Shown: piece after piece, positions 1,459-24,182 of the stretch
Position numbering within the stretch: position 1 is the first letter of the stretch
How the letters are laid out: each line of letters begins with the position of its first letter
IMG/VR virus record: IMGVR_UViG_2711768073_000020
Coordinates: 1 to 39,494 of that record
Direction: 5' to 3' (one strand)
DNA: 39,494 nt
DNA from: a virus
Taxonomy: Duplodnaviria; Heunggongvirae; Uroviricota; Caudoviricetes
The notes under the pieces: generated by a model
What the model saw: only the letters and a program-made list of their open reading frames with translations
Database searches by the model: none
Told to the model about the DNA's origin: nothing
Translations under genes and position numbers: made by a program

Positions 1459-2622
1459 TTACACATCATTAGTACCTTCCTTATTTTTTGACTGGGACAA
1501 ATTTGGGACCGATGGGTTCAGGATCGAGTCTATTTGCCGTGCGTGTTCGGTAAGGTGATTAGGTGCAAGGTGAGCATATCGACGAACCATTTCGATAGAC
1601 TCCCAGCCTCCCATTTCCTGTAACACTGACAACGGGACTCCGGCTTGAACCAGCCAACTTGCCCAGGTGTGTCTCAAGTCGTGAAATCTGAAATCATCAA
1701 TACCAGCCCGTCTCAGCGCCGCTTTCCAGGCTGTGTTTGCGTCATACCGCATCTTCCTTACTGTTGGCGCTTTCGTTCCGTCTGGTTTGGTACAGCTTTC
1801 CTTGTACACAAATACCCAACGGTGATGATTCCCGATTTGTTTTTTCAATACGCGACATGCAGTATCATTCAGCGCAACGCCAATTGCGCGGTTTGATTTA
1901 CTCTCTTCCGGGTTTATCCATGCCACCCGGCGCTGCATGTCTATTTGTTGCCATTCAAGGTTGATGATGTTCGAGCGTCTTAAGCCTGTTGCCAGTGCAA
2001 ATTCAACAACAGACTTTAATGGCTCCGGACATTCATCAATCAGCCTTTGTGCTTCATGAGGCTCCAGCCAGCGGATACGTTTATTCTTCGGTTGAGGCAC
2101 TTTAAGAATTGGTGCCTTATCCAGCATTTTCCATTCACGCTCTGCGGCTCTTAGCAGGGCCTTTATAAATGAAAGATGCGTAGCCTTCGTTGCAACGGAC
2201 GCTGGTTTTGGCGTGTATTCTGGAACAGGTTTCCCTTTTTTTCTGCATGCTTCTGCCCTGAGTTTCCAGTTTTCCTCATGACGCCGGTTTGTCATTTTCT
2301 GCATCGCTGAATAAATTTTTGATTCAGTGATGTCTCTTAGTTGCATCCCTGCGAAATGTTGAAGCCAGAATCCGATCCGGCTTTTGTCATCGTCCAGTGA
2401 TTTCTTATGTGCTTTCTCTTCGAGCCACCTGACACACGCTTCCTCAAACGTCATATCAGGTATTTCACCAAGTTTGCTGACCCGCCATGCTTCAGCCTTT
2501 AGCTTGTCATGGAGCTCTGTCGCCTGCCTTTTGTCCTTTGTTCCAAGAGACTGTTTAAATCTTTTACCGTTCGGCAATGTGAAACTGGCGTACCATATTT
2601 CACTTCTGCGGAAGAGTGACAT
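1459..2622 (-). CDS. int: Prophage integrase, tyrosine recombinase (P22/SfV-like, thrW-targeting), 387 aa
   Basis: Starts [33 protein letters not shown]; C-terminal catalytic region [39 protein letters not shown] (R-H-R-Y family); stop codon 15 bp downstream of the tRNA 3' end, the classic tRNA-adjacent integrase arrangement. Confidence 0.9.
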
Positions 2623-2849
2623 TTTCTTTCCTCTGTTATGCCATCACCCGCGCTCACCTGGACAGTATGCAGCGGAGACTGAAGAGCCGCAATGCAGGCT
2701 TGTCGTGTTGTGAGGTAAGGAGATTTATTCTTAGTGGGATCTTTGCGTGTTGCCTGAAGACGCCCTGTGCGTATCCAGTTAATGGCAGTCGGTCTGGATA
2801 TCTTGAGAAAATGACAGGCCTCATCGAGTGTGAGGCTGTATGGCTCCAT
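2499..2849 (-). CDS. xis: Excisionase (Xis), about 116 aa from internal ATG at 2849
   Basis: [33 protein letters not shown] helix-turn-helix excisionase-like N-terminus; start ATG overlaps the upstream gene stop (TAATG); 3' end overlaps the int 5' end by about 124 nt as in P22-type int-xis modules. Confidence 0.65.
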
Positions 2850-3154
2850 TATTTCACCTCTTGCTGTGACATTGTTGAAAAATGGATACCAGCTCGTTGC
2901 TGCCAGACGATCCAACCGAGAGTCATATCCCATGCCATGTATTCGTTATTGCCGTTTTTTGCTCTCCGACGATCTACTAAGTCACCGAAACGCTTTTCCA
3001 TGAATAATTCATAAGCTTCGCGTTCATCTGGTTCTACTTCCAGAGATAGGAGTGCGATTTCATAAGCACGGCGCTCAATATCGTCTCGCACGTCAAGGCT
3101 GCTGATACGCTCTTTAATTTCTTTAATCAGTTCTTTGTCGGTAAAAGTGGTCAT
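2849..3154 (-). CDS. Hypothetical early protein (YfdT-like by size and position), 101 aa
   Basis: ORF translationally coupled to neighbours (ATGA overlap with the upstream gene at 3154); no recognisable motif. Confidence 0.5.
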   Translation of the reverse strand: MTTFTDKELIKEIKERISSLDVRDDIERRAYEIALLSLEVEPDEREAYELFMEKRFGDLVDRRRAKNGNNEYMAWDMTLGWIVWQQRAGIHFSTMSQQEVK

Positions 3155-3516
3155 TATGCTCCAGCCTCCGGTGCTTTTGGCATTACTGCCCAGTGAGTGA
3201 TATTGACGTTTTCAAGGTCCCCGACCTGAAATGTCCACTGCCATTCTCCGGTTTCTTTTTGTCCCCAGGTGTACCAGAGAGAACGCCAACCAATTAGCCA
3301 GCCTTCTCCGTTAGCATCGAATAACAAAACACTTTCATTTGCTGGTGGCAGTTCAGTTGACACTGGTATTACTTTGTTTTCCTGTGCTGCACATTTAGCT
3401 TCAAGCGCATCGAATTTACGCACCAGGTATTCAGAATCTGTTTCATTTACTTTCAGATCTCGCGGTACACATCTCCCACGAAGAAACCCTTCCATTTCGA
3501 AAACATTCATGCGCAT
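3154..3516 (-). CDS. DUF551-type phage protein (YfdS-like), 120 aa
   Basis: W-rich C-terminal region (GWLIGWRSLWYTWGQKETGEWQW) typical of DUF551 proteins of lambdoid early regions; overlaps the upstream gene by 10 nt. Confidence 0.5.
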   Translation of the reverse strand: MRMNVFEMEGFLRGRCVPRDLKVNETDSEYLVRKFDALEAKCAAQENKVIPVSTELPPANESVLLFDANGEGWLIGWRSLWYTWGQKETGEWQWTFQVGDLENVNITHWAVMPKAPEAGA

Positions 3517-4043
3517 TTGCGTAACTCCGATAACTCGTTAAAGCGTTCCATAAACATCCCGTAGGCATGGCCCGGTGCCAGTGGAATCACGTTGAACATC
3601 TCTGTTGCCGGGATACCTTCCAGTACAGGCCAGAAAGAGCCATCATCAAGCCCGAGATCGCGGCGTTCGGTTGCCAGCATGATGAGATCGGCATATTTCA
3701 CGGGCGTACTCATAACTGGGGGTAATCCGTATTTCTCACGGATTACGGAGTCTATTTTTTCTTCCATTTGTTTATAGTCAGGAAGAAGGCGTTTCAGTGG
3801 TGCGGGAATGTCCTGGCAATACGCTTCTGTTGCATCATGCATTAACGCTTCAAAAGCAAATTCCTGCGGCACCAGCTGGCTGCAAAGAACCGCATGTTGG
3901 GCGACGCTGTAGAAGTGCGAAAGATGACCGGCAAAGCGACAGATATTTGAAAGGGAAACCGCGATATCGTTAATATCGATGTCGTCTTTATTTATCCTGT
4001 CATAATAAAAATGCTTCCCGGAAAAAGTTTTAATAAATGACAT
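3507..4043 (-). CDS. HD-domain phosphohydrolase / 5'-deoxynucleotidase-like protein (YfdR-like), 178 aa
   Basis: H...HD motif (FAGHLSHFYSVAQHAV ... ALMHDATEAY); likely true start is the ATG at 4043 preceded by GGAG (the ORF-track start at 4070 is a GTG). Confidence 0.65.
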   Translation of the reverse strand: MSFIKTFSGKHFYYDRINKDDIDINDIAVSLSNICRFAGHLSHFYSVAQHAVLCSQLVPQEFAFEALMHDATEAYCQDIPAPLKRLLPDYKQMEEKIDSVIREKYGLPPVMSTPVKYADLIMLATERRDLGLDDGSFWPVLEGIPATEMFNVIPLAPGHAYGMFMERFNELSELRKCA

Positions 4044-15145: not shown

Positions 15146-15472
15146 ATGCCTCATAACCCAAATACCTGGCTGGAGTTGGTCCAGAGCTGGTGGCGTGGAG
15201 ACACACCGCTGGGCGCAGTGATTATGTCGATCGTTATGGCTGGCTTGCGCATTGCCTATTTTGGCGGTGGTGGTGGCTGGAAACGAAAAACGCTCGAGAT
15301 TTTGCTCTGTGGTGCTCTGACGCTGACTTTTGCATCCGCTCTTGAGTATGTCGGATGGCCTAAATCTCTTTCTGTTGCCATTGGTGGCGGCGTTGGGCTG
15401 ATCGGGGTCGATGCTATTCGTGGGGCTGCAATGAGAGTAATCGGTAATAAGTTTGGTGGCTCTAAGGAGTAA
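15146..15472 (+). CDS. Holin, 108 aa
   Basis: Small protein with hydrophobic helices (LGAVIMSIVMAGLRIAYF; LEILLCGALTLTFASALEYVGW; AIGGGVGLIGV) and a charged C-terminus, immediately upstream of the endolysin. Confidence 0.7.
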   Translation: MPHNPNTWLELVQSWWRGDTPLGAVIMSIVMAGLRIAYFGGGGGWKRKTLEILLCGALTLTFASALEYVGWPKSLSVAIGGGVGLIGVDAIRGAAMRVIGNKFGGSKE

Positions 15473-15475
15473 TTT

Positions 15476-15952
15476 ATGCAGGTACTAAATTCCCAGCGTA
15501 AAGCTTTCCTGGATATGGTGGCATGGTCAGAAGGAACGGATAACGGGCGACAACCGACACGTAACCACGGTTATGACGTTATTGTCGGTGGCGAACTCTT
15601 CACTGATTACTCCGATCACCCTCGCAAACTTGTCACGCTAAACCCGAAACTCAAATCAACAGCTGCAGGCCGTTATCAACTTCTTTCACGTTGGTGGGAT
15701 GCTTACCGCAAGCAGCTTGGGCTGAAAGACTTCTCTCCCAGAAGCCAGGACTCAGTGGCATTACAGCAGATTAAAGAGCGTGGCGCTTTACCGATGATTG
15801 ATCGCGGCAATATTCGTCAGGCAATCGACCGTTGCAGCAATATCTGGGCGTCTTTACCTGGTGCAGGTTACGGTCAGTATGAACATAAAATTGGCGACCT
15901 GATTTCCCGGTTTAAAGAGGCTGGTGGGGTGGTAAATGAAGCTGAGATATAA
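15476..15952 (+). CDS. R: Endolysin, lambda R-type lytic transglycosylase, 158 aa
   Basis: NSQRKAFLDMVAWSEGTDNGRQPTRNHGYDVIVGGELFTDYSDHPRKLV... is near-identical in pattern to lambda R. Confidence 0.9.
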   Translation: MQVLNSQRKAFLDMVAWSEGTDNGRQPTRNHGYDVIVGGELFTDYSDHPRKLVTLNPKLKSTAAGRYQLLSRWWDAYRKQLGLKDFSPRSQDSVALQQIKERGALPMIDRGNIRQAIDRCSNIWASLPGAGYGQYEHKIGDLISRFKEAGGVVNEAEI

Positions 15953-16328
15953 GCTGGTTATTGTTGCCTTCTTTGTTACCGTCATTGGTTCCTTCATCTG
16001 GTCTGCCGGGCATTACTACAGCAAATATCTGCACGAAAAGGAGCGTGCTGATGAGGCTATACGAAATGCTGAATCAGCAACTGCCATTACCCGTAACGTT
16101 CTGCAATCACTGCAAATCATCAATACAGTTATAGAGGCTAACCAGCATGCAAAACAGCAGATTGCACTGGAGTCACAGAAAACCCAGGAAGATATCAAAG
16201 TGGCTGTTGCGGATGATGATTGTGCTTCACGTCCTGTGCCTGCTGCCGCTGCTGACCGGTTGCGGAAGTACGCGGACAGTTTACGTGAACACTCCGGCGG
16301 TACCACTGCCAGCCAGCTTGACTTCTGA
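15936..16328 (+). CDS. i-spanin (Rz-like), 130 aa
   Basis: N-terminal TM anchor (LVIVAFFVTVIGSFIW) followed by charged helical region; overlaps the endolysin end; an o-spanin ORF starts inside it in another frame. Confidence 0.6.
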   Translation: MKLRYKLVIVAFFVTVIGSFIWSAGHYYSKYLHEKERADEAIRNAESATAITRNVLQSLQIINTVIEANQHAKQQIALESQKTQEDIKVAVADDDCASRPVPAAAADRLRKYADSLREHSGGTTASQLDF

Positions 16329-17202: not shown

Positions 17203-17228
17203 ATGCTTATTACAAAGAGTTTTCTTCA

Positions 17229-17579
17229 ATGCCACCACGAACTCCAAAAGCCTGCCGTGTTCGCGGGTGCCGCCGTACCACCACTGACCCGTCAGGTTAT
17301 TGCGAAAGCCACAAAAGCGAAGGCTGGAAGCAATACAAGCCAGGACAATCCCGTCATCAGCGCGGCTACGGTTCGAAGTGGGACGTTATCCGCGCGCGTG
17401 TGCTGAAACGTGACAAAGGTTTATGTCAGTTATGTCTGCGCGCTGGTGTGGTGCGTGAGGCGAAAACTGTTGACCACATCATCCCTAAAGCGCATGGCGG
17501 CACTGATGCCGACTGTAATCTGCAGAGTCTGTGCTGGCCGTGTCATAAGGCGAAGACGGCCCGTGAACGGTTGAAGTGA
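17229..17579 (+). CDS. HNH endonuclease (terminase-associated), copy 1, 116 aa
   Basis: Cys-rich zinc motifs (CRVRGC...CESH) and HNH core (DHIIPKAHGGTDADCNLQSLCWPCH); 5' part only ~88% identical to copy 2 at the DNA level. Confidence 0.8.
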   Translation: MPPRTPKACRVRGCRRTTTDPSGYCESHKSEGWKQYKPGQSRHQRGYGSKWDVIRARVLKRDKGLCQLCLRAGVVREAKTVDHIIPKAHGGTDADCNLQSLCWPCHKAKTARERLK

Positions 17580-17704
17580 TAATAATTCTCAACTGCCTGA
17601 GGGGAGGGGCGGGTCAAATCCCTGCGGCCTGACGTCTTCCGGACTGCCCGCCCCATCGTTTTTTTATACCCGCGAAAAATGAAATTTAACCAGGAGTGCC
17701 GCAT
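17580..17704. other. Candidate cos / packaging region between HNH and TerS (copy 1)
   Basis: GC-rich dyad GGGGCGGG...CCCGCCCC followed by TTTTTTTATAC; in HK97-type phages cos lies between the HNH gene and the small terminase gene. Confidence 0.3.
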
Positions 17705-18190
17705 ATGGCTGGAACGGCGGGGCGTTCCGGGCGTCGCCCCAAGCCAACGGCGCGCAAGGCGCTGGCCGGAAACCCCGGCAAGCGAGCCCTGAATAAAGAT
17801 GAACCTGTTTTTACGCCCATCAAAGGTGTTGAGCCACCGGAATGGTTCGCTGAAGAAGATCTCCCTCTCGCTACGATCATGTGGCAACTGACAACTAAAG
17901 AACTCTGCGGTCAGGGCCTGCTGTGCGTGACTGACCTCGCGGTGCTTGAGCGGTGGTGCGTGGCCTATGAGTTCTGGCGACGTGCCGTGAAAAATATTGC
18001 CAGCCAGGGCAACACCATTACCGGTGCAATGGGCGGTATGGTCAAAAACCCGGAGCTGACCGCCAAGAAAGAACAGGAGTCCGAGATGAGCAGCACGGGG
18101 GCAATGCTCGGACTCGACCCCAGCAGCCGCCAGCGTCTGATTGGCCTGGCGGGGAAGAAGAAAGCCACTAACCCGTTTCTGACAATCTGA
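17705..18190 (+). CDS. Terminase small subunit (P27 family), copy 1, 161 aa
   Basis: [14 protein letters not shown]... with AGGAG RBS 8 nt upstream of ATG 17705; protein identical to copy 2. Confidence 0.75.
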
Positions 18191-18203
18191 AAATCATCGA
18201 ATC

Positions 18204-18388
18204 ATGAGCCGGAAATCTTACCCCAACGTAAATGCTGCCAATCAGTATGCCCGGGATGTCGTGCGCGGAAAGATTGTGGCCTGCCAGTTTGTGATTCAGG
18301 CCTGCCAGCGCCATCTTGATGACCTGATGGCGGAAAAAAGTAAGTCGTTTCGTTACCGCTTCGACAAGGATCTGGCTGAACGGGCCGC
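18204..18388 (+). pseudogene. Terminase large subunit, 5' fragment (first ~62 codons) truncated at an IS3 junction
   Basis: Matches the first ~185 nt of the intact TerL gene at 21075 and diverges after 18388, where IS3-derived sequence begins. Confidence 0.8.
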
Positions 18389-19038
18389 ATTCCACGCAGA
18401 TTATGCCGCTTCAGTTGCGCCTGATAATCTGCTGAACAGTACTGGCCTCCACGGTCCGTGTGAACGATAACGTTCCGGGGCCTCTTACGCCGCCACAGCG
18501 CCATCTGCAGGGCATCGCAGGCCAGTTGCGCCGTCATGCGTGGCGACATTGACCAGCCAATAACGGCACGTGACCACAGGTCAATGACCACTGCCAGATA
18601 CAGCCAGCCTTCATCTGTACGTAAGTACGTGATGTCTCCTGCCCACTTCTGGTTCGGGCCACTGGCGTAAAAATCCTGCTCCAACAGATTTTCTGACACA
18701 GGCAGGCCGTGTGCGCGGTAGCTGACCGGGCTGAACTTCCGGGAGGCCTTTGCCCTCAGTCCCTGACGGCGCAGGCTTGCCGCCACGGTTTTTACGTTAA
18801 AGGGGTAACCCTGAGCACGCAGTTCATCCGTCAGGCGTGGGGCACCGTAACGCTGTTTTGACCGGGTAAAAGCCGCGAGGACAACGCTGTCGCAGTGTTG
18901 GCGGAACTGCTGACGCGTGCTTATCCTTGTCCGCCGCTGACACCACGTATACCAGCCGCTGCGGGCCACCCGGAGCACGCGGCACATTGCTTTGATGCTG
19001 AACTCAGCCTGATGTTTTTCAATAAAGACATACTTCAT
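18389..19038 (-). pseudogene. insF: IS3 transposase InsF (OrfB), 3'-truncated
   Basis: [36 protein letters not shown]...QLKRHNLRG matches IS3 InsF, then reads into non-IS DNA. Confidence 0.8.
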
Positions 19039-19949: not shown

Positions 19950-20099
19950 TTGTGAACTCCTGTTCATTGAGTTTCAACAACTATCAACTACATCCAGCGA
20001 AGCATAAAAGATCGTTTATGGCAAAACCGGAATGGAGTGCGATTCGATTCTGAGAAGGGTGCCACGTATCGTACGCGAACCATCCAAGAGGATTATGCA

Positions 20100-20450
20100 A
20101 TGCCCCCACGAACCCCAAAAGCCTGCCGCGTTCGCGGCTGCCGCCATACCACCACTGACTCGTCAGGCTATTGCGAAAGCCACAAAAGCGAAGGCTGGAA
20201 GCAATACAAGCCAGGCCAGTCCCGACACCAGCGCGGTTATGGTTCGAAATGGGATGTTATCCGTGAACGTGTGCTCAAGCGTGACAAAGGCCTGTGCCAG
20301 TTGTGCCTGCGTGCTGGTGTGGTGCGCGAGGCGAAAACCGTTGACCACATCATCCCTAAAGCGCATGGCGGCACTGATGCCGACTGTAATCTGCAGAGTC
20401 TGTGCTGGCCGTGTCATAAGGCGAAGACGGCCCGTGAACGGTTGAAGTGA
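20100..20450 (+). CDS. HNH endonuclease (terminase-associated), copy 2, 116 aa
   Basis: Same HNH motifs as copy 1; AGAGGA RBS 7 nt upstream of ATG 20100. Confidence 0.8.
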   Translation: MPPRTPKACRVRGCRHTTTDSSGYCESHKSEGWKQYKPGQSRHQRGYGSKWDVIRERVLKRDKGLCQLCLRAGVVREAKTVDHIIPKAHGGTDADCNLQSLCWPCHKAKTARERLK

Positions 20451-20575
20451 TAATAATTCTCAACTGTCTGAGGGGAGGGGCGGGTCAAATCTCTGCGGCC
20501 TGACGTCTTCAGGACTGCCCGCCCCATCGTTTTTTTATACCCGCGAAAAATGAAATTTAACCAGGAGTGCCGCAT
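20451..20575. other. Candidate cos / packaging region between HNH and TerS (copy 2)
   Basis: Same GC-rich dyad and T-tract as copy 1 with 3 substitutions. Confidence 0.3.
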
Positions 20576-21061
20576 ATGGCTGGAACGGCGGGGCGTTCCG
20601 GGCGTCGCCCCAAGCCAACGGCGCGCAAGGCGCTGGCCGGAAACCCCGGCAAGCGAGCCCTGAATAAAGATGAACCTGTTTTTACGCCCATCAAAGGTGT
20701 TGAGCCACCGGAATGGTTCGCTGAAGAAGATCTCCCTCTCGCTACGATCATGTGGCAACTGACAACTAAAGAACTCTGCGGTCAGGGCCTGCTGTGCGTG
20801 ACTGACCTCGCGGTGCTTGAGCGGTGGTGCGTGGCCTATGAGTTCTGGCGACGTGCCGTGAAAAATATTGCCAGCCAGGGCAACACCATTACCGGTGCAA
20901 TGGGCGGTATGGTCAAAAACCCGGAGCTGACCGCCAAGAAAGAACAGGAGTCCGAGATGAGCAGCACGGGGGCAATGCTCGGACTCGACCCCAGCAGCCG
21001 CCAGCGTCTGATTGGCCTGGCGGGGAAGAAGAAAGCCACTAACCCGTTTCTGACAATCTGA
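20576..21061 (+). CDS. Terminase small subunit (P27 family), copy 2, 161 aa
   Basis: Identical protein to copy 1; immediately followed by the intact large subunit. Confidence 0.8.
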
Positions 21062-21074
21062 AAATCATCGAATC

Positions 21075-22808
21075 ATGAGCCGGAAATCTTACCCCAACGT
21101 AAATGCTGCCAATCAGTATGCCCGTGATGTCGTGCGCGGAAAGATTGTGGCCTGCCAGTTTGTGATTCAGGCCTGCCAGCGCCATCTTGATGACCTGATG
21201 GCGGAAAAAAGTAAGTCGTTTCGTTACCGCTTCGACAAGGATCTGGCTGAACGGGCCGCCAAATTTATTCAGCTGTTGCCGCACACCAAGGGTGAGTGGG
21301 CATTCAAGAGGATGCCCATCACGCTGGAGCCGTGGCAGCTCTTTGTGATCTGCTGCGCGTTTGGCTGGGTCAATAAAGGCTCCCGGCTGCGCCGCTTCCG
21401 TGAGGTGTATACCGAAATCCCCCGTAAGAACGGCAAATCGGCAATCTCTGCCGGTGTCGCCCTGTATTGTTTTGCCTGTGATAACGAGTTCGGCGCGGAA
21501 GTGTATTCCGGTGCCACGACGGAGAAACAGGCATGGGAAGTCTTTCGTCCGGCAAGACTGATGTGTAAACGCACACCCATGCTGACGGAAGCGTTCGGGA
21601 TTGAGGTTAACGCCTCAAACATGAACCGTCCGGAGGATGGCGCGCGGTTTGAACCGCTGATCGGCAACCCCGGTGATGGTTCATCACCCCACTGTGCCGT
21701 GGTGGATGAATATCACGAGCACGCCACCGATGCGCTTTATACCACAATGCTTACCGGGATGGGGGCGCGACGTCAGCCACTGATGTGGGCCATCACCACC
21801 GCCGGGTACAACATTGAGGGGCCGTGCTACGACAAGCGGCGGGAAGTCATCGAGATGCTCAACGGCTCGGTGCCTAACGATGAACTGTTCGGGATCATCT
21901 ATACCGTTGATGAAGGTGACGACTGGACCGACCCGCAGGTGCTGGAAAAAGCCAATCCAAATATTGGCGTATCGGTTTATCGCGAATTTTTGTTAAGTCA
22001 GCAGCAGCGTGCGAAAAATAACGCCCGTCTGGCAAACGTCTTTAAAACAAAACACCTCAATATCTGGGTGTCGGCACGTTCGGCGTATTTCAACCTGGTG
22101 AGCTGGCAGAGCTGCGAGGATAAATCACTGACCCTTGAGCAGTTCGAGGGGCAGCCGTGCATTCTGGCCTTTGACCTGGCGCGTAAGCTGGATATGAACA
22201 GCATGGCGCGACTTTATACCCGCGAGATTGACGGTAAAACGCATTACTACAGTGTGGTCCCGCGCTTCTGGGTACCGTATGACACGGTGTACAGCGTCGA
22301 GAAAAATGAAGATAGACGGACAGCCGAACGCTTTCAGAAATGGGTGGAAATGGGCGTCCTGACCGTTACCGATGGTGCAGAGGTGGATTATCGCTACATC
22401 CTCGAAGAGGCCAAAGCGGCGAACAAAATCAGCCCGGTCAGTGAGTCACCCATCGACCCCTTCGGGGCGACCGGGCTGTCACATGACCTTGCTGATGAAG
22501 ATCTGAATCCCGTCACTATCGTCCAGAACTTCGCCAATATGTCCGATCCGATGAAAGAGCTGGAAGCAGCGATTGAATCGGGACGCTTTCATCATGACGG
22601 CAATCCCATCATGACCTGGTGTATCGGCAATGTGGTCGGCAAAAACATGCCAGGTAACGATGATTTAGTGAAGCCCGTCAAGGAGCAGGCGGAAAACAAA
22701 ATCGATGGTGCGGTTGCACTGATTATGACGATCGGTCGGGCAATGCTCAAAGAACCTGACGATTTCCTCTCATCTCTTGATCCGGACGATGATCTCTTAA
22801 TTCTATGA
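21075..22808 (+). CDS. Terminase large subunit, 577 aa
   Basis: Size and position after TerS; N-terminal ATPase region with Walker A-like EIPRKNGKS and C-terminal nuclease region. Confidence 0.9.
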
Positions 22809-22966
22809 AATCACTAATTGCTGATGTTATCGGGCTGGCTGGTTTTGGCCTGCTTACGTGCGGGGTTTACCTGCAGTTTGGTATGGCTCCGGCTCTGATT
22901 TTGTCCGGTGCTTTACTGCTGGTGGGCGCACTGGCTATGGTCAGAAGGGGGACGCGTGCTGCTTGA
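22805..22966 (+). CDS. Candidate small two-TM membrane protein (53 aa) between TerL and portal; not in the ORF track
   Basis: [53 protein letters not shown]; ATGA overlap with the TerL stop and stop adjacent to the probable portal start. Confidence 0.35.
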
Positions 22967-24182
22967 TGCTCTGTTCAGAAGTAAATCACTGGAGAATCCT
23001 TCCACCCCGATAACCGGGGATGCCGTTGATACTGATGGGCTGTTCCGGGCTGACGTTTATGTCAGTCCTGAGACTGCGATGAAACTGGCTGCGGTGTATT
23101 CCTGTATCTATGTCCTGTCTTCCAGCCTTGCCCAGATGCCGTTGCATGTTATGCGCAGGCACAAGGGGAAGGTTGAACCCGCACGCGATCATCCTGCGTT
23201 TTATCTGGTTCATGATGAGCCCAATACCTGGCAAACCAGCTACAAATGGCGCGAACTGAAGCAACGTCACATCCTTGGCTGGGGGAATGGGTATACCTGG
23301 GTGAAACGTAATCGTCGCGGTGAAGTCATATCCCTGGATTGCTGTATGCCGTGGGAAACGACGCTGATGAATACTGGTGGCCGATATACCTACGGTTTGT
23401 ACAACGAATATGGGGCGTTTGCGATCAGTCCGGACGATATGATCCACATCCGTGCGCTGGGTAATAATCAGAAGATGGGGCTGAGTCCGATTATGCAACA
23501 TGCCGAAACAATAGGCATGGGGATGAGCGGTCAGAAGTACACAGAAAGCTTCTTCAGCGGTAATGCCCGTCCGGCGGGGATAGTATCCGTTAAAAGCGGA
23601 CTCAATAAGGAAAGCTGGGGCTGGCTTAAAGATCAGTGGCAGAAGGCATCGCAGGCGTTACGCCGCCAGGAAAACAAAACCATGCTGCTGCCAGCCGATC
23701 TGGATTACAAGGCACTGACTGTGTCGCCAGTTGACGCTCAGATCATTGACATGATGAAGCTGAACCGTTCAATGATCGCCGGTATTTTCAATATTCCTGC
23801 GCACATGATTAATGACCTCGAAAAAGCCACCTTCTCCAATATTTCTGCGCAGGCGATTCAGTTTGTCCGCTACACGATGATGCCGTGGGTGACGAACTGG
23901 GAGCAGGAGCTTAACCGTCGCTTGTTTACCCGCGCTGAGTTAGCCGCCGGGTATTACGTCAGGTTCAATCTGACGGGGCTTTTACGCGGAACTCCGCAGG
24001 AGCGCGCGCAATTCTATCACTTCGCTATTACCGATGGATGGATGAGCCGTAATGAGGCCCGCGCATTCGAGGATATGAATCCGGTTGAAGGGCTGGACGA
24101 GATGCTGGTAAGCGTGAATGCTGCTAACCCGGCAGGAGATTTTAAGCCCCCAAAAAACGATGAGGGAAAAACCAATGAATGA
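22956..24182 (+). CDS. Portal protein (HK97 family), ~408 aa from GTG 22956
   Basis: Position after TerL, size and portal-like sequence; the ORF-track start at 22908 gives a W-rich extension overlapping the small membrane ORF, so GTG 22956 (preceded by AAGGGGG) is preferred. Confidence 0.8.
   Translation: MLLDALFRSKSLENPSTPITGDAVDTDGLFRADVYVSPETAMKLAAVYSCIYVLSSSLAQMPLHVMRRHKGKVEPARDHPAFYLVHDEPNTWQTSYKWRELKQRHILGWGNGYTWVKRNRRGEVISLDCCMPWETTLMNTGGRYTYGLYNEYGAFAISPDDMIHIRALGNNQKMGLSPIMQHAETIGMGMSGQKYTESFFSGNARPAGIVSVKSGLNKESWGWLKDQWQKASQALRRQENKTMLLPADLDYKALTVSPVDAQIIDMMKLNRSMIAGIFNIPAHMINDLEKATFSNISAQAIQFVRYTMMPWVTNWEQELNRRLFTRAELAAGYYVRFNLTGLLRGTPQERAQFYHFAITDGWMSRNEARAFEDMNPVEGLDEMLVSVNAANPAGDFKPPKNDEGKTNE

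Follow-up and report, generated by a model that had tools for sequence, protein, structure and literature searches.

A Small Gene Between TerL and the Portal

We analysed a 39,494-nucleotide stretch of viral DNA (IMG/VR record IMGVR_UViG_2711768073_000020, positions 1 to 39,494; referred to below as the window), which represents an SfV/SfIV-type prophage with its integration site beside a tRNA-Thr gene. The subject of this study is a small open reading frame (ORF) at window positions 22805–22966 on the plus strand. It consists of 53 codons and a stop codon and encodes a 53-residue hydrophobic protein, predicted to form a helical hairpin, that matches PHROG 7105 and falls into what we describe below as a YmfR-like superfamily. 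The upstream neighbor is the gene for the large terminase subunit, TerL (21075–22808, plus strand), a 577-residue ORF with matches to TerL_ATPase (PF03354, E = 3e-26), TerL_nuclease (PF20441, E = 4e-34) and PHROG 9. The downstream neighbor is the gene for an HK97-type portal protein (22956–24182, plus strand; PF04860, E = 2.9e-98), listed here with its corrected GTG start at 22956. Between positions 22500 and 23300, the window is 99.4% identical to Shigella phage SfV, and SfV positions are converted to window positions by adding 20516.

The original prediction, which was made from the sequence alone, had described an ATG that overlaps the TerL stop codon as ATGA, a 53-codon ORF opened by it, and an ORF end that adjoins the portal start. 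The ORF is present exactly at 22805–22966 on the plus strand. Its ATG (22805–22807) shares bases with the TerL stop codon TGA (22806–22808), and the resulting ATGA start/stop overlap (22805–22808, plus strand) can be read directly in the sequence; it would constitute a termination–reinitiation junction coupling the two genes. An ATGA or GTGA junction is kept in all SfV-like relatives. At the other end, the small gene overlaps the portal gene by 11 nucleotides, since the portal has its conserved start at GTG 22956.

An open frame of 53 codons is not remarkable in itself. At the base composition of the window it would arise with P ≈ 0.08 per start, and the case for a gene therefore depends on comparative evidence. 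In a comparison of 11 relatives, the ratio of nonsynonymous to synonymous substitutions (dN/dS) was 0.10–0.33 for the small ORF, versus 0.6–3.2 for two shifted control frames, and the variable alignment columns were distributed 30/15/44 over the three codon positions. The ORF was intact, with a length of 52–53 codons, in 87/87 related loci, which included 33 distinct nucleotide versions. Furthermore, an ORF of 52–53 codons has been called at the equivalent place in four phages with ≈70–77% DNA identity (Edwardsiella phage EPP-1, Salmonella phage F1055, Klebsiella phage vB_VIPKPNMC05 and Escherichia phage Evi), and the protein has 26 close homologs. Conservation of the frame and of its overlaps in relatives was one of the checks that the original prediction had proposed, and both are in evidence. 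These comparisons indicate that the small ORF is under purifying selection, and it is almost certainly a real protein-coding gene.

Portal Start and Probable Translational Coupling

The SfV record places the portal start at GTG 22908 (SfV position 2392), which extends the ORF upstream by 48 nucleotides (22908–22955, plus strand; NC_003444 2392–2439). Several observations speak for the shorter form. The open frame of the extension is not conserved among relatives. In three related loci (L003–L005), an ATG aligns with position 22956, each preceded by a Shine–Dalgarno sequence, and in four loci (L004, L005, L074 and L077) the portal frame contains stop codons just upstream of the sequence MLLDALFRS. 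The start equivalent to 22956 is also the one used by PGAP and in the four phage records named above. Thus, judging from these alignments, it is most likely that the portal starts at GTG 22956, and the extension is probably not translated as part of the portal. The original prediction had named a portal start at 22908 as the finding that would speak against it; the ATG codons of the relatives, the upstream stops and the PGAP and phage records all point away from that position.

The portal start is preceded by a Shine–Dalgarno sequence, AGAAGGGGGA (22943–22952, plus strand), located 4 nucleotides before GTG 22956 and within the codons for the conserved residues R47-R48-G49 in the basic tail of the small protein. 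An equivalent sequence (AGGGGG or AGGAG) is retained in the relatives. No Shine–Dalgarno sequence was evident on direct reading of the sequence upstream of the small-gene ATG at 22805, so the gene is probably translated by ribosomes that have just terminated on TerL. Its own termination, 8 nucleotides past the portal start codon and with the portal Shine–Dalgarno sequence inside the small gene, would then deliver ribosomes to the portal start. In this way TerL, the small protein and the portal would be made late and in linked amounts. The predicted mRNA structure was not significant at either small-gene junction (z = −1.5 and −0.1).

We considered the possibility that the small gene is a moron, i.e., an autonomously expressed piece of cargo. 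There was no excess of promoter-like sites (4, versus 5.0 ± 2.2 expected in shuffled sequence), none of which lay directly upstream of the gene on the plus strand, and no excess of terminator-like sites (8, versus 6.4 ± 3.1 expected). The small gene, which also overlaps both neighbors, is therefore probably not an autonomous moron.

Where a YmfR-like small gene precedes the portal, the portal protein mostly starts with the hydrophobic motif M-[LIF]-[LF]-[DS]-x-[LI]-F, seen at window positions 22956–22985 and at the equivalent positions in L002–L005, L088, L090, L091, L094, L095 and L100–L102. The portals of HK97 (which has no small gene), Streptococcus phage Sfi21 (which has a DUF1056 gene) and Vibrio phage Len have different N-termini. 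The sample is small, and the pattern may reflect only the phylogeny of the portals.

The Predicted Protein

The small protein has a grand average of hydropathicity (GRAVY) of 1.29, ranking first among the 169 ATG-initiated ORFs of at least 45 residues in the six frames of the window. AlphaFold2, run with a 20-sequence alignment, confidently predicted a helical hairpin with a mean predicted local distance difference test (pLDDT) score of 89.7, in which residues 2–25 and 27–52 form the two helices, in agreement with the strongly hydrophobic two-helix peptide of the original prediction.

At the start of helix 1 there is an acidic residue, Asp7 (codon at 22823–22825, plus strand), which is invariant in two alignments (A1 and A2) and present in 82% of 98 diverse representatives of the family. 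The hydrophobic core of helix 1 (residues 8–25; 22826–22879, plus strand) carries four glycines (G10, G13, G15 and G20) and ends in a Y22-L23-x-F25 motif. This is followed by Gly26 (22880–22882, plus strand), the sole internal non-helical residue in the AlphaFold2 model, which makes the tight turn between the helices. The hydrophobic core of helix 2 (residues 27–46; 22883–22942, plus strand) includes G35 and most of it is taken up by the best segment on the Hessa scale (residues 30–46, summed dG of −1.86 kcal/mol). Among the 98 representatives, conservation was 97% for G13 and G20, 94% for G26 and 100% for G35. The protein ends in a basic tail, RRGTRAA (22943–22963, plus strand), and the corresponding tail has at least one K or R in 97% of the family and at least two in 70%. 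On average, the 98 members have 1.1 K or R residues at the N-terminus and 2.0 in the C-terminal tail, with few in the turn. The helix cores are almost uncharged; that of helix 1 has a mean of 0.01 K+R and 0.01 D+E across the family.

Modeled in this way, the small protein is very probably a membrane hairpin. Since the K and R residues sit at both ends, the positive-inside rule predicts an N-in/C-in topology, which fits an inner-membrane protein whose two termini are cytoplasmic and whose periplasmic portion is reduced to a minimal turn made by the Y-L-x-F-G motif. Lys2 and the RRGTR tail would both be cytoplasmic, with the hairpin embedded in the inner membrane. The first reading offered by the original prediction, that of a small membrane protein expressed along with the head genes, is supported by these results, the membrane insertion itself being a prediction. 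Scans of the SfV peptide against Pfam and NCBIfam gave no match (for Pfam, at E ≤ 1), and the same scans of 63 diverse relatives gave no credible family.

A Superfamily of Portal-Adjacent Proteins

The SfV peptide matched PHROG 7105 with E = 1.6e-21 (76.9 bits), residues 1–52 aligning with positions 1–52 of the 52-position profile, and this PHROG was also matched by 63/63 of the diverse relatives. A profile search of 1.84 billion representative proteins yielded 140 clusters at 50% identity, nearly all of them 45–60 residues long. The family has the signature M..L..D..GL.GF..L..G.YL.FG...AL...G..LL..A...A, followed by basic residues. At 53 residues, the SfV peptide conforms to the signature in having D7, G10, G13, G15, G20, Y22, L23, F25, G26 and G35, and its gene has the position expected for PHROG 7105, that of a small gene directly upstream of, and overlapping, a PF04860 portal gene.

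PHROG 7105 is the best but not the only match. The SfV peptide has a weak secondary match to PHROG 502 (“membrane protein”; E = 4.8e-5, 23.8 bits) and also matches PHROG 4810. PHROG 502 was matched by 38/63 of the diverse family members. Its clear representatives include SfII_03 (“membrane protein”) of phage SfII and L37 (“putative integral membrane protein”) of phage phiP27, both with E ≈ 1e-28. Gp3 of Burkholderia phage phi644-2 matches PHROG 502 at 2e-14 and PHROG 7105 at 2e-7, and therefore bridges the two groups, while Len_0062 of Vibrio phage Len matches PHROG 4810. All four proteins are encoded in the slot before the portal gene.

Escherichia coli K-12 YmfR (b1150, “IPR020297 domain-containing protein”) belongs to the L37 cluster. 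In the e14 cryptic prophage, ymfR is flanked by the terminase remnant ymfN/aaaE on one side and the portal remnant beeE on the other, and the stop codon of ymfR overlaps the beeE start. When searched with the profile of the SfV-type family, YmfR scored 21.9 bits and L37 24.8 bits, and the named relatives as a group scored 22–25 bits, aligned in register. As controls, the best of 2000 composition-preserving shuffles gave 8–12 bits (maximum 12.4), and reversed sequences 0–4 bits. Comparison at the level of sequence profiles thus supports a single superfamily that unites PHROGs 7105, 502 and 4810, including YmfR, L37 and SfII_03, and in which the small gene apparently always sits immediately ahead of an HK97-type portal gene. 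The scores back homology at this level, and not membership of the SfV peptide in the YmfR family proper.

YmfR, L37 and SfII_03 resemble the SfV peptide in being very hydrophobic two-helix proteins, and in their position after TerL or its remnant, with a stop codon that overlaps the start of an HK97-type portal gene (or beeE). They differ in several respects. The YmfR branch belongs to PHROG 502 rather than 7105 and is only ≈25% identical to the SfV peptide. It lacks the N-terminal MK.L..D sequence and the YLQFG turn, having WLIYPP instead, and its proteins are 60 residues long, with a longer polar tail. Its genes have their own Shine–Dalgarno sequence and start after an 11-nucleotide gap behind TerL, where SfV has the ATGA overlap, and they are associated with a different portal lineage. 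What has been reported about ymfR is limited: it is co-induced with other e14 genes in the SOS response (PMC10012262), its deletion had no host phenotype (PMC9145139), and in an overexpression screen of uncharacterised membrane proteins it appeared in the first round only (PMC10299036).

Two members of the superfamily are irregular in their database records. In Halomonas phage QHHSV-1 (L006, KX879752; positions 1790–2000), the 30-codon ORF QHH_52 corresponds to the first half of a full-length family member, and the second half is found in another frame. Together the two halves match the 63-residue protein P0040, so that the record contains a frameshift, which may be genuine or an error of sequencing. 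In Vibrio phage Len (L103, KX581092; positions 2786–2988), Len_0062 is annotated as a 49-residue protein with a GTG start; it begins at profile position 18 and is without helix 1. Its true start is probably upstream, in the 53-nucleotide gap after TerL.

Linkage to the Portal Gene

We examined the neighborhoods of 11 divergent family members with 30–50% mutual identity, using the junction sequences for six of them. These members come from Proteobacteria and from one Chlorobiaceae genome. In 11/11 cases, the small gene overlapped the start of a PF04860 portal gene with its 3′ end, by 4, 11, 14 or 17 nucleotides, and its start overlapped the TerL stop codon in 10/11, by 4 nucleotides (8 in one). 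The exception was the Chlorobiaceae genome, in which five unrelated genes stand between TerL and the small gene, with an 11-nucleotide portal overlap still kept. In this assembly (JAAXWQ010000003, L088/L089; positions 1716–4000), the five inserted genes encode proteins of 77–271 residues with no Pfam match, and the head module is otherwise of the standard HK97 type. Downstream of the portal, the protease varies between S78 and S49 types among the divergent members, and the constant partner of the small gene is therefore the portal.

A mosaic breakpoint relative to phage SfII lies in the 3′ end of TerL (22730–22760); identity is 93–100% upstream of it (to ≈22750) and ≈40–48% downstream, where SfII has its PHROG 502 “membrane protein” and a different portal. 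The small gene has therefore been exchanged together with the portal. In 14 complete loci, the divergence of the small protein tracked that of the portal (Spearman 0.41, Mantel p = 0.002; partial r of 0.40 given TerL), with no correlation with the divergence of TerL (0.07, p = 0.32). A second breakpoint, relative to a Morganella prophage (L105), falls within the 3′ end of the small gene itself (22920–22935, at ≈22925–22930); DNA identity is ≈40–60% upstream of it and ≈70–85% from ≈22929 on. The small gene thus marks a hinge at which the packaging module and the head module recombine.

Annotation Status and Prophage Context

The original prediction called the ORF unannotated. This holds for the SfV GenBank and RefSeq records, both of which omit it, but does not hold generally, since PGAP and several phage records include it. 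PGAP lists the gene as a hypothetical protein (e.g., WP_033561879.1 of E. coli FAM21845) and calls it in hundreds of E. coli prophages, so that only the old SfV record lacks it. The locus matches 265/5426 complete E. coli genomes. The SfIV genome paper makes no mention of the small gene, and a literature search on portal-adjacent small membrane proteins, DUF1056, phiP27 L37 and ymfR found no functional study. The existence of the gene is thus already in the databases, as a PGAP hypothetical protein and as PHROG 7105, and its sister group too already carries labels, “putative integral membrane protein” for the phiP27 member and a gene name in K-12. Mechanistically, nothing is surprising as yet. 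The SfV reference needs two corrections, for the absent small gene and for a portal start that is 48 nucleotides too far upstream. What is new here is the corrected SfV portal start, the joining of PHROGs 7105, 502 and 4810 and YmfR as one portal-adjacent superfamily, its separation from DUF1056 (see below), and a quantified, though imperfect, linkage to the portal.

At its left end, the window includes the junction of prophage and host (1–2622), consisting of a host ORF (1–1254), the tRNA-Thr gene (anticodon CGT; 1369–1444) and an integrase gene on the minus strand (1459–2622). The early, regulatory half of the prophage has ≈96% identity to SfIV, SfV and SfII over only ≈60% of them, and is therefore mosaic. 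A separate lysis cassette, more than 7 kb upstream of the small gene, contains a gene for a lambda-S-type holin (15146–15472; PF05106, E = 6e-25), a 158-residue ORF with no Pfam match (15476–15952) and a gene for a DUF2570 protein that falls just below the Pfam cutoff and may be a spanin (15936–16328).

Closer to the small gene there is a direct duplication of ≈1.17 kb (17215–18385 and 20086–21256, offset by 2871 nucleotides) that includes an HNH endonuclease gene, the gene for the small terminase subunit and the first ≈180 nucleotides of TerL. The small terminase subunit is thereby present as two identical 164-residue Terminase_4 ORFs (17696–18190 and 20567–21061). The two copies are 82–96% identical in the HNH part and 100% identical in the small terminase/TerL part, and are separated by a transposase ORF on the minus strand with rve and HTH_21 domains (18202–19038). 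The first copy appears to be a TerL-truncated remnant adjoining the insertion sequence element.

Possible Functions

Here we have a very widespread, functionally uncharacterised, small predicted membrane protein whose gene is hard-wired to that of an HK97-type portal. Because of this combination, we propose that the hairpin is an accessory that assists assembly of the portal or the procapsid at the cytoplasmic membrane, where it would hold or nucleate the portal ring. The role would be analogous to that of gp40 and host YidC for the portal of T4, in which gp20 assembles on the inner membrane with both proteins (PMC9958956, PMC4493910). As a whole, the explanation that we tentatively favor, at a level somewhat short of even, is that of a late gene coupled to TerL and the portal that encodes a predicted membrane hairpin serving as such an accessory. 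Taken by itself, the broader statement that the function is tied to the portal or head strikes us as an evenly balanced one, and the specific role of a membrane tether or nucleator for the portal, drawn by analogy with T4, is rather doubtful. A further step would be a platform in the membrane, composed of YmfR-like hairpins and perhaps ring-shaped through oligomerisation of their glycine-rich helix faces, that nucleates the dodecamers of HK97-type portals; we offer this as a distinctly unlikely speculation.

A number of observations weigh against an assembly role. HK97 itself has no gene in this slot, and its TerL stop codon abuts the portal start; HK97-type portals can therefore assemble without such a protein, and the hairpin would be helpful but not universally required. 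The correlation between the divergences of the small protein and the portal is moderate and based on 14 loci. The Morganella prophage and the window have portals that are 81% identical and small proteins that are only ≈36% identical. This mismatch excludes a tight co-adaptation with the portal and implies that part of the gene can travel with TerL; evidently, one type of portal works with rather different versions of the hairpin. The adjacency and overlap could persist for translational reasons alone. Membrane-associated head assembly has been described as a peculiarity of T4 (PMC4493910), and Foldseek searches against PDB and BFVD were uninformative, with no match at E < 1, as one would anticipate for a bare hairpin.

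The small protein could instead be a late membrane effector that targets the host envelope and not the portal, for example by antiholin- or pinholin-like timing of lysis, by depolarising or sealing the membrane, or by blocking superinfection or the re-adsorption of progeny, with its position reflecting operon history and translational coupling. This is the main rival, which we consider unlikely overall. In its favor, a two-helix hydrophobic hairpin with a basic tail is generally similar in architecture to small proteins of the holin-like and exclusion types, the category assigned to PHROG 502 is [quoted passage not shown], and a few family members have noise-level Pfam matches to holins or two-transmembrane effectors (E of 0.1–0.3). 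The dispensability for HK97-type assembly and the exchange of the small protein independently of the portal would also fit such a function. However, there is no significant Pfam or NCBIfam match, the lack of an autonomous promoter or terminator is unlike a classical moron, and the pre-portal position in 11/11 neighborhoods, even after a five-gene insertion, would be difficult to account for unless function or expression ties the small gene to the portal. A lambda-S-type holin is already encoded in a separate cassette 7 kb upstream, relatives have one as well (L094), and a primary role in lysis is therefore disfavored. If the protein nevertheless acts on the host envelope, it would represent a new class of late-expressed membrane effector. 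A different possibility is that the protein is a virion component, captured at the portal vertex and released upon infection to contribute to the channel by which DNA crosses the inner membrane, in the manner of internal or pilot proteins or of P20 and P22 at the packaging vertex of PRD1, which are a precedent for small membrane proteins in this location (PMC5850374). Translational coupling to the portal suggests stoichiometric production, and membrane hairpins that oligomerise typically have glycine-rich helix faces. Against this, an internal membrane is absent from tailed phages, and a hairpin of such hydrophobicity should enter the host membrane while it is being made. Moreover, the literature provided no support from virion proteomics, and in SfV-type phages the tape-measure and tail-tip proteins usually serve as the ejection conduit, making this reading improbable.

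The two remaining explanations dispense with a function for the protein. In one, the ORF is only a translational bridge that passes ribosomes terminating on TerL to the start of the portal gene and sets the ratio of TerL to portal, its peptide being functionless. Conserved overlaps at both ends, a portal Shine–Dalgarno sequence inside the ORF and the lack of an obvious one for the ORF itself are all consistent with a bridge. A functionless peptide, however, would not be expected to display the strong amino-acid constraint seen in dN/dS, nor a motif and hairpin that persist at ≈45–60 residues across 140 clusters in which DNA similarity has been lost. In addition, the YmfR/L37 branch has its own Shine–Dalgarno sequence and a gap after TerL, HK97 manages with a direct coupling of TerL and portal and no bridge, and neither junction has significant mRNA structure. 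A bridge alone is therefore highly improbable. In the other, which was the alternative put forward in the original prediction, the ORF is an untranslated chance frame in the portal leader. The per-start probability of ≈8% for 53 codons and the absence of the gene from the original SfV annotation would allow for this, but all of the conservation evidence contradicts it: the frame is intact in all 87 related loci and under purifying selection (dN/dS of 0.10–0.33), the family match is full-length and extends over 140 clusters, and the longer portal start is not conserved. A chance frame is thus barely credible, and we treat it as ruled out.

Should the protein act on the portal, the matter would be tractable by genetics in prophages of E. 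coli or Shigella (SfV, SfII, phiP27), and the small gene is a good candidate for a simple knockout.

Comparison with Known Systems

Class II holins and pinholins are small, have two transmembrane helices and carry a basic tail on the cytoplasmic side. The SfV peptide shares this architecture, but its gene lies outside the lysis cassette, with TerL and the portal as neighbors, and it is shorter than typical holins. It has no Pfam or NCBIfam match to a holin family, and its relatives have only noise at E ≈ 0.3; the existence of a separate lysis cassette with its own PF05106 holin further weakens the identification as a holin.

In phage lambda, the position between terminase (A) and portal (B) is occupied by gpW (68 residues), which is thus a positional analogue. 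GpW is a soluble head–tail joining protein, whereas the SfV protein is a hydrophobic hairpin, and the SfV peptide had no Pfam match at E ≤ 1 in a search whose scope would have covered the gpW family. The name “putative head-tail joining protein”, given to DUF1056 proteins in some databases, probably derives from analogy with gpW.

PRD1 offers a likeness of a different kind. Its P20 and P22 are small integral membrane proteins that link the packaging machinery to the membrane at the unique vertex (PMC5850374). PRD1 has an internal viral membrane and non-homologous capsid and packaging proteins, and there is no relation in sequence or synteny to the SfV gene.

Another counterpart in position and architecture is DUF1056 (PF06341; PHROG 1142), represented by orf59c of Streptococcus phage Sfi21. 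This hydrophobic protein has 59 residues and two helices, and its gene lies between those for TerL and a PF04860 portal. It belongs to the HK97-like head module of Gram-positive phages, agrees with the SfV gene in size, architecture and position, and is equally uncharacterised. Unlike the SfV small gene, orf59c does not overlap its neighbors. The DUF1056 Pfam model (gathering score of 22.2 bits) gave no match to the SfV peptide at E ≤ 1 and none was listed for the 63 relatives, while Sfi21 orf59c, as a positive control, scored 39.5 bits. Alignment of the profiles with hhalign gave a probability of 0.3% over 7 aligned columns, against a DUF1056 alignment that is shallow (effective number of sequences, Neff, of ≈1.2), and the family profile scored −1.4 bits on DUF1056 in hmmsearch, within the noise of shuffled sequences. 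Homology is thus not supported, a very remote relationship being possible given the shallow alignment, and by these sequence comparisons DUF1056 is to be regarded as a positional and architectural analogue only.

With T4 the likeness is one of proposed function only. T4 gp40, together with YidC, is a membrane-associated chaperone for assembly of the gp20 portal, which belongs to a different Pfam lineage from the SfV-type portal, and T4 gene 40 is presumably not adjacent to gene 20. If the small protein does act on the portal, membrane-associated initiation of heads would extend beyond T4. If, furthermore, YmfR-like hairpins do form a platform for portal nucleation, membrane-initiated procapsid assembly would be widespread among temperate HK97-like phages, in Proteobacteria and beyond, and DUF1056 would be its convergent or very remote Gram-positive counterpart.

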